Shown one piece after another: positions 580 through 1,471 of a stretch of DNA of 4,189 nucleotides. Source of the DNA: a virus (lineage: Duplodnaviria > Heunggongvirae > Uroviricota > Caudoviricetes). The notes beneath the pieces were generated by a model that worked only from the letters and a program-made list of their open reading frames with translations, did not search any database and had not been told where the DNA came from. The position numbers and the translations under genes were made by a program. Location: the IMG/VR virus record IMGVR_UViG_2681813225_000018, one strand, 5' to 3'. Positions within the stretch are counted from its first letter, which is position 1; every line of letters starts with the position of its first letter.

Positions 580-1317
580 TCATTCACTCTCTTTCAAACC
601 AGCTTTAACTGTTTGTGGTTTTGGGTAAGGCTGGACTTTGAATAGCTTTGTGTTGAGGCGTTTTCTGGCCCTCTTGTTCAGAAACCGGATGTAACGAAAC
701 TGTCGGAACTTATGCACACTGGCTCTGTCGATATTAGCCCTCAGATGTTCACCTCGTTGTCCGCCTCGTTTAATGGCATTCCTGCAAATCTCGTGATACC
801 ACTCGCCATCAAGTTCATAGAATGTTGATTCATGGCTGCCTACATAATCAAAATTGCTTGCCTGATACACGACACCAAGACAGCCACAACGCTCATCTGC
901 AAACGACTGAACCCACTGTACCTGCGGATAAAGCTGCCTGATTAGCTTGAGCGCGTAACTGATTGCCCTTGATTCGGAGTTTCTCGGCATACAGTCATGC
1001 ATCCATAGCCGGTTAAGCTCCATATATTCTCGGTTCTGCGTACCCGTTACGACGCGTGCACCACTGTTTGGGTTAAGGGCGTAACCCCATTGCATTACGC
1101 CAACAAGTTCCCGTTCTGAAAATATGCCCAGATGAAGGTAGGAATTATTTACGAAACGGTGGCTGTAATGTTTATTGACGATAACCAGTCTGGCCAGCCA
1201 GCAACTTATTGTCTCAACCCGCAACTCACGGGAGCCATAACCAACGATATTGTCGTTATAGCGAATAAGTTCAGGCGTGCTGATGATACGGGATGTGACT
1301 TGCTTTCTGTTCCCCAC
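580..1317 (-). CDS. mom: Mom-like DNA adenine modification protein (Mu Mom family, predicted acyltransferase-like), 245 aa, GTG start
   Basis: 245-aa ORF whose 5' end overlaps the 3' end of a clear Com homologue by 47 nt, which is the Mu com-mom arrangement. AAGGAA ribosome-binding site 9 nt upstream of the GTG at 1317-1315. Start codon lies inside a predicted hairpin (see 1312-1343). Assignment rests mainly on synteny with com; I cannot align to Mu Mom from memory. Confidence 0.6.
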
Positions 1318-1471
1318 GACAGGATTTCCTTGTGTATGTGGGGTGCTCTGTGGCGCTCGGAGATGTGATTTGATTGAGGGTTTTACAGCGCGGACATTTT
1401 ACTTCCAGATAACTGAAACTGGCCCGTGCCAGTAGCTTATTGCAGTGTCGGCACCGTATGTTTCGATACAT
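1271..1471 (-). CDS. com: Com-like zinc-ribbon translational activator of mom, 66 aa
   Basis: [35 protein letters not shown]... closely resembles Mu Com as I recall it (MKSIRCKNCNKLLFKADSFDHIEIRCPRCK...), with the same CxxC-x15-CxxC spacing. Strong AGGAGG ribosome-binding site (1487-1482) 10 nt upstream of the ATG at 1471-1469. The track ORF's upstream ATG at 1516 has no ribosome-binding site and adds non-homologous residues. Stop at 1271-1273 lies inside mom. Confidence 0.8.
1312..1343 (-). promoter_or_regulatory. Predicted translation-inhibition hairpin in the mom leader, sequestering the ribosome-binding site and GTG start
   Basis: On the - strand, CCCCAC (1343-1338) pairs with GTGGGG (1317-1312), a 6-bp G/C-rich stem. 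The 20-nt loop contains the AAGGAA ribosome-binding site and the 3' arm is the mom GTG start plus second codon. Matches the known Mu mechanism in which Com opens a start-site hairpin. Confidence 0.4.

Follow-up and report, generated by a model that had tools for sequence, protein, structure and literature searches.

A hairpin over the mom start codon, with a predicted Com operator beside it, in a diverged Mu-like prophage

Bacteriophage Mu restrains its DNA-modification gene mom by several layers of control, and the com-mom control mechanism was worked out between 1987 and 1991. The last of these steps belongs to a general class in which a start codon and its Shine-Dalgarno sequence are sequestered in an mRNA stem that a regulator opens for expression. 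In Mu, Com is essential for the translation of mom (PMC3378877), and over-expression of Mom is lethal (PMC7261163). The stem of the Mu translation-inhibition structure (TIS) includes the mom GUG, and Com binds a short hairpin just upstream of the TIS, where it recognises CC(N)2-3GAG in the loop (PMC6483171). The same study reported the bipartite SELEX consensus NGAGNNCC(N)2-3GAGNNCCNN for Com and found the C-terminal tail of the protein to be dispensable for RNA binding (PMC6483171). The gate in Mu is the binding of the Com protein beside the hairpin, not the passage of com-translating ribosomes through it. In 2002 further Mu-like prophages were pointed out to have candidate Com sites, as cited in a passage of PMC3299994, which describes com and candidate Com-binding sites before DNA methyltransferase genes in FluMu (HI1523), Pnm1 (NMA1821) and phage B3 (ORF48).

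Here we analyzed a stretch of 4,189 nucleotides of viral DNA (IMG/VR record IMGVR_UViG_2681813225_000018), referred to below as the window. On its minus strand the window carries a com-mom gene pair, which very probably forms, together with the RNA structures at the junction, a translational control module of a Mu-like prophage with a start hairpin opened by Com. The features on which the analysis draws are as follows.

1-450, plus strand: 3' part of a lambdoid tail-tip J gene (Pfam Ig_J, 1.3e-42)
580-1317, minus strand: mom, 245 amino acids, Mom-family adenine-modifying enzyme (Pfam PF25680, 5.8e-77)
1271-1471, minus strand: com, 66-amino-acid zinc-ribbon protein (PF10122, 2e-12), with its ATG at 1471-1469 and AGGAGG at 1487-1482
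1315-1317, minus strand: GUG start codon of mom, within the 3' arm of the hairpin
1312-1343, minus strand: translation-inhibition hairpin, outer stem CCCCAC (1343-1338) with GUGGGG (1317-1312) around a 20-nt interior
1327-1330, minus strand: mom Shine-Dalgarno sequence AGGA, 9 nt 5' of the GUG and inside the 20-nt loop
1319-1333, minus strand: inner stem ACA-GG with CCUGU around an AAAU loop, from predicted folds
1342-1358, minus strand: predicted Com operator GAGCGCCACAGAGCACC, from the SELEX motif match, covariation and RNAalifold

Both genes were assigned by protein-level searches, which alone reached Mu; nucleotide megablast against phage records was insufficient. The mom product matched PF25680 with 258 bits over profile positions 1-202 of 202, that is, over the full length, and was 79.5% identical to Mu Mom; judged by its sequence, it is a genuine member of the Mom family. 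The GUG at 1317-1315 is the first possible start and the sole candidate at the head of the open reading frame. PGAP uses the same GUG in identical E. coli copies, and its ortholog in Mu is the mom GUG at L001:695. The window's Com shared 47% identity with that of Mu, the two CxxC pairs of each protein lining up, and its coding sequence was annotated identically by PGAP. The com stop lies at 1273-1271, so that com overlaps mom by 47 nt (1317-1271+1), as the preliminary description had it, and the 3' part of com encodes both the operator and the hairpin. Two plus-strand reading frames, 1132-1368 and 1277-1435, were taken as spurious, being antisense to two well-supported genes.

The com product (1271-1471, minus strand, in the window; 6821-7021 in L002) is labelled "Com family DNA-binding transcriptional regulator" in RefSeq. 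This label looks wrong, since the Com of Mu binds RNA and activates translation (PMC6483171), and the present analysis corrects it for the E. coli genomes that carry the cassette.

We then analyzed the folding of the com-mom junction. The minus-strand RNA reads ...GAGCGCCACAGAGCA-CCCCAC-AUACACAAGGAAAUCCUGUC-GUGGGG-AACAG..., and its outer stem consists of five G-C pairs and one A-U pair, with C1343, C1342, C1341, C1340, A1339 and C1338 opposite G1312, G1313, G1314, G1315, U1316 and G1317. The preliminary description had placed a hairpin at exactly these positions, with a 3' arm made of the mom start and the next codon, and both points were borne out: the arm is GUG (1317-1315) followed by GGG (1314-1312), and the six outer pairs had a probability of at least 0.98 in every context (0.98-1.00 in contexts of 63, 96, 231 and 361 nt). 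It had also placed the ribosome-binding site in the loop. This holds in that AGGA lies inside the 20-nt loop, but the site is not simply exposed, as two of its bases, G1329 and G1328, are engaged with C1322 and C1323 at a pairing probability of 0.97-0.98. These two pairs belong to the inner stem, in which A1333, C1332, A1331, G1329 and G1328 face U1319, G1320, U1321, C1322 and C1323; the AGG/CCU pairing of the Shine-Dalgarno sequence is retained in three related loci (L083, L084 and L085).

The folding check that had been proposed, on the 71-nt piece 1360-1290, placed the hairpin in the minimum-energy structure (-14.3 kcal/mol, z = -1.0). The hairpin was likewise part of the minimum-energy fold of a 46-nt piece (-12.6 kcal/mol, z = -2.35), for which 4 of 200 shuffles were equally stable. 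Among 1000 dinucleotide shuffles, the start codon was equally paired in 2.2%, and the start codon together with the Shine-Dalgarno sequence in 0.6%; for this single sequence, the pairing of the ribosome-binding region had a z of about 1.7. Since the energy z-scores of a single sequence are modest, the weight falls on the comparative data given below. Taken with those data, the hairpin over the mom start is real.

A G+C-rich stem inside an operon could also be a terminator, an attenuator or an RNase processing site in the com-mom transcript. The bases after the stem, GAACAGAAAGCAAG, contain no U run, and a terminator scan gave no minus-strand site at the hairpin. A search of the whole window against Rfam at E <= 1 found no model matching the element; the sole hit was an unrelated snoRNA model elsewhere in the window, with 19.8 bits against a gathering score of 60. 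As the site shows neither a U run nor a terminator call on the minus strand, we rejected a terminator or attenuator here, and the probability left to a role of this kind is close to negligible.

Directly abutting the hairpin on its 5' side is a predicted Com operator, which was missing from the earlier account of this DNA. Its sequence, GAGCGCCACAGAGCACC, exactly matches the SELEX motif GAGNNCC(N)2-3GAGNNCC (PMC6483171), with one match in the window against 0.01 expected. The operator stem would be formed by G1356-C1343, a C1355.A1344 mismatch, G1354-C1345 and C1353-G1346, so that three of the four pairs are standard, and the loop CCACAGA, closed by C1353-G1346, carries the CC(N)3GAG motif. 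Because an exact Com motif stands directly against the hairpin, we take the hairpin to be the positional homologue of the Mu TIS with its operator beside it.

The operator and the hairpin share one nucleotide. At C1343 the operator stem has its outermost 3' base, paired with G1356, and the lock its outermost 5' base, paired with G1312; as this base stands in both helices, the two would compete for it. Across lineages this position, which is U in Mu, covaries with its operator partner as well as with its lock partner. The C.A mismatch makes the isolated operator hairpin weak in prediction and could lower the affinity of Com. Among 41 distinct operators the mismatch is confined to the window's lineage and its two nearest relatives, and a natural variant (L081) repairs it to U-A.

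Comparison with Mu placed the window next to a described counterpart. In Mu the same place reads GAAUGCCUGCGAGCA-UCCCAC-GGAGAAACAUU-GUGGGA-AAAG, with an annotated GUG as the mom start and GGAG as the ribosome-binding site in the loop. Both phages have the com-mom pair in the same order with an overlap (47 nt in the window and 50 nt in Mu, L001 695-744), the GUG in the 3' arm, a CCCAC/GUGGG core, and the Shine-Dalgarno sequence inside the hairpin. Immediately 5' of it, both have a 4-bp operator hairpin with a six-nucleotide loop carrying CC(N)3GAG and one nucleotide in common with the TIS. The two differ in the outer lock pair, which is C-G in the window and U-A in Mu, and in the lock loop, which has 20 nt and a 5-bp inner stem pairing the Shine-Dalgarno GG in the window, whereas that of Mu has 11 nt and no inner stem. 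The isolated hairpins have predicted stabilities of -12.6 kcal/mol (window) and -9.5 kcal/mol (Mu), and the operator stems are GCGC/GCAC with the C.A mismatch and AUGC/GCAU, respectively. The likeness to the Mu structure in a diverged sequence, which the preliminary description had proposed, is thus supported column for column in the alignment, and the hairpin is, as far as sequence comparison can tell, an unremarkable, diverged version of the safety catch already known to restrain a toxic DNA-modification gene.

Whether this arrangement has been kept by selection on the RNA was then judged from related loci. In 131 related mom loci, drawn from genomes and from viral contigs, com and mom were located and their junctions compared. 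Nineteen distinct enterobacterial junctions align unambiguously, with the window's arms in the same columns as the Mu arms. RNAalifold, run on these 19 junctions with no structure supplied, returned two adjacent hairpins, the operator and the TIS. The sixth, outer pair of the TIS covaries (UA in 10, CG in 8 and UG in 1 of the 19). Covariation was also sought in the five inner TIS pairs among these close relatives, and none was found: four are invariant, and the loop-closing pair changes from C-G to U.G in one sequence. As these pairs do not vary, they give no signal for or against pairing, and their constancy could stem from coding, namely the com codons CCC-AC and the mom codons GUG-GG. Within the close clade, then, the covariation support for the TIS helix is thin.

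The absence of inner-pair covariation would also be expected if the inverted repeat were a by-product of overlapping coding (Com ...E-H-P-T..., Mom M-G...) with no regulatory role; the whole region codes for com, and the part after the GUG start codes for mom as well, GUG included. However, the sixth pair does covary, and distant clades pair the Shine-Dalgarno sequence or the start codon by means of unrelated sequences. In those clades the hairpin after the operator is entirely different in sequence and nevertheless covers the Shine-Dalgarno sequence, the start codon or both, with stems such as CCUCG/CGAGG (Pseudomonas phage-like loci), CCAUC/GAUGG (L136) and CCUCC/GGAGG (L017). The hairpin is also linked to the presence of com. 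The start codon had a pairing probability above 0.8 in 32 of 51 com-bearing junctions, compared with 2 of 12 com-less mom genes, and the ribosome-binding region was more paired than its own shuffle mean in 45 of 51 junctions; these counts are not phylogenetically independent and are supportive only.

Two further observations stand against the by-product reading. The homologous hairpin of Mu is an experimentally supported inhibitory structure (PMC6483171), and the hairpin is intact where mom has been replaced by another gene. In E. coli SW070917 (L138, 2484-2669 and 1463-2515) the same com, operator, hairpin and GUG-GGG-AAC stand before an annotated DNA cytosine methyltransferase gene, and similarity to the window stops within about 13 nt after the GUG. 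The SW070917 loop differs by one U-to-C change, which breaks the lowest pair of the inner stem. Since the block of com, operator, hairpin and GUG is joined to a different gene there, the hairpin travels with com, not with mom. In FluMu, Pnm1 and B3 the gene after com is not mom, whereas the window has a genuine Mom; SW070917, of the same lineage as the window, shows the arrangement of those three phages. Taken together, we consider it highly improbable that the inverted repeat is a by-product of coding.

The operator stem provided the stronger comparative signal. Among the 41 distinct operators, which span enterobacteria, Pseudomonas, Desulfovibrio and Rhodospirillaceae, both sides change in four of the four pairs. 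Paired cells made up 97% of the stem; the corresponding figures were 76% in shuffles and no more than 57% with the partner columns slid. The 97%, though not the covariation, is inflated by the use of a script that rewarded pairing when the operators were picked.

The open com frame raised a different question. Com translation was said in the preliminary description to pass through the hairpin. The sequence bears this out, and relatives keep the overlap: in 48 of 50 distinct lineages, which range from enterobacteria to Desulfovibrio and Pseudomonas, com terminates 29-65 nt past the mom start. By this measure the com frame is kept open over the operator and the lock far more often than expected by chance. 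It was therefore considered that ribosomes translating the 3' tail of com open the lock in cis, with Com binding secondary or unnecessary. As Com can bind RNA without its C-terminal tail (PMC6483171), the tail may be kept for another reason, which would favour such translational coupling. On the other hand, an operator that covaries and fits the Com motif obtained by experimental selection is conserved beside the lock, which argues for protein binding, and Mu Com is described as an essential mRNA-binding activator (PMC3378877, PMC6483171).

Translational coupling is the only serious rival to opening by Com, and the two are compatible with each other. Com supplied in trans reportedly activated mom fusions in the Mu work of 1987-1991, which also speaks against coupling as the main mechanism. 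Conservation of the operator favours Com binding as the main gate, and we regard coupling in its place as decidedly unlikely. A combined form, in which the lock and the Com operator make up a switch that also needs the translation of com through both hairpins, is somewhat less doubtful, though still unlikely. If it were true, the com-operator-hairpin-GUG block would be a portable two-input safety catch, responding to Com protein and to com translation, and recombination would move this catch onto different toxic DNA-modification genes, as the cytosine-methyltransferase fusion of SW070917 suggests.

Opening of the lock by Com, the preferred reading, would proceed as follows. The mom GUG and part of its Shine-Dalgarno sequence would be locked in the two-tier hairpin 1343-1312 of the com-mom mRNA, so that ribosomes would be unable to start on mom, the product of which is toxic. 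Com, the zinc-ribbon product of the upstream overlapping gene, would bind the hairpin 1356-1343 through the loop motif CC-ACA-GAG. Because the two hairpins abut and compete for C1343, the binding of Com would be expected to weaken the lock and make the start signals accessible. Compared with the general class of sequestered starts, the proposed opener would be a dedicated zinc-ribbon protein, encoded on the same mRNA and binding beside the stem.

The evidence gathered here comprises the folded structure and its correspondence in position to that of Mu, the operator motif, the covariation, and the association of the hairpin with com. From Mu (PMC6483171, PMC3378877) we infer that Com would bind the window RNA and that mom translation would depend on Com. 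The mechanism is already known from Mu, and the locus adds no new principle. What it suggests is that the last Mu-type layer guarding mom, the start-codon hairpin with Com, has been kept intact in a diverged Mu-like prophage, and that the control block is movable onto another modification gene. It also offers natural variants for work on Com-RNA recognition, namely the C.A mismatch, the variant repaired to U-A and the longer two-tier hairpin.

Alternative folds of another kind were seen in junctions of the Pseudomonas/Desulfovibrio type (L049, L044, L050, L051, L005, L029, L024 and L042). In their minimum-energy folds the 5' half of the operator (for example GCCAUGGAGC) pairs with the start-codon region (GCUCAUGGC), so that the operator hairpin and the start-occluding helix would be mutually exclusive. 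This switch is more explicit than that of Mu. In the window, the only pairing of this kind between operator and start is a weak CCAC/GUGG option, and the lock stays at 0.98 or above in the ensemble. In L008 (about 1160-1200; MAG Enterobacteriaceae Hs463_bin3), where mom occurs without com, the UUG start of mom lies within a perfect 13-bp hairpin, CUGUUUUCUCAAG...CUUGAGAAAACAG; this is a lock without a recognisable Com or operator.

The position of the cassette in the window was then compared among genomes. The J gene, with its Ig_J domain, breaks off at about 451, where a Mu-like transposable prophage cuts into it with its right end. From about 451 on, the sequence is common to many E. coli genomes whatever stands to its left: the neighbour of the prophage end is the J gene in the window, a tail assembly chaperone gene in OkiPb01685 and pspG in 2014C-3011. 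These differing neighbours indicate that the element was inserted at different sites. Megablast of 560-1720 against phage records gave only two partial matches, both in Stx phages, and in two Stx-phage records the corresponding stretch is annotated as an inserted Mu-like phage. In OkiPb01685 the order towards the element end is baseplate, tail fibre, recombinase, DUF6645, DUF1378, DUF826, com and mom; this is the layout of the Mu right end, where gin, com and mom come last. Given this Mu-like layout and the insertion annotation, the right end in the window is that of a transposable Mu-like prophage within a lambdoid prophage, and the com-mom cassette is located at that end, inserted in the lambdoid tail gene. 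Annotated copies of the cassette occur in 233 of the 5,426 complete E. coli genomes, O157:H7 strains among them, and prophage Sp18 of O157 Sakai (PMC3299994) is a lead to the name of the element.

Near the prophage end, three exact copies of TTTGATAC were found on the plus strand at 469-476, 491-498 and 526-533, within 65 nt of the end, where 0.18 copies were expected in the window. They are candidate transposase-binding repeats, and they are unlike the Mu consensus annotated in D108.

The region upstream of com has no obvious resemblance to the Mu mom promoter, Pmom. Five of the window's 13 GATC sites cluster there (1519-1691). Two of them lie in a perfect palindrome, AATCGATCG-N7-CGATCGATT, at 1515-1539, 45-70 nt before the com ATG, and two others in an 11-nt tandem repeat at 1637-1658. 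The cluster recalls the Dam/OxyR control of the Mu mom promoter (PMC3378877), although the layout is different, and GATC-rich upstream regions also occur at com-less mom loci.

Further upstream of com on the coding strand, a strong terminator-like hairpin stands at 1750-1779 (minus strand), with 13 pairs followed by UCCCUUUUAU. A terminator at this place would insulate com-mom from DUF826 and DUF1378, and a promoter of their own would therefore be expected between about 1750 and 1490. A perfect tandem repeat of GTAGTAT (3.3 copies) lies at 1696-1718 and adjoins a plus-strand promoter-like site at 1663-1690. Divergent from com, a small plus-strand reading frame at 1886-2056 has two CPAC motifs, is zinc-ribbon-like and gave a weak match to Trm112p (0.0051); in RefSeq the longer region around it is annotated as a frameshifted hypothetical gene.
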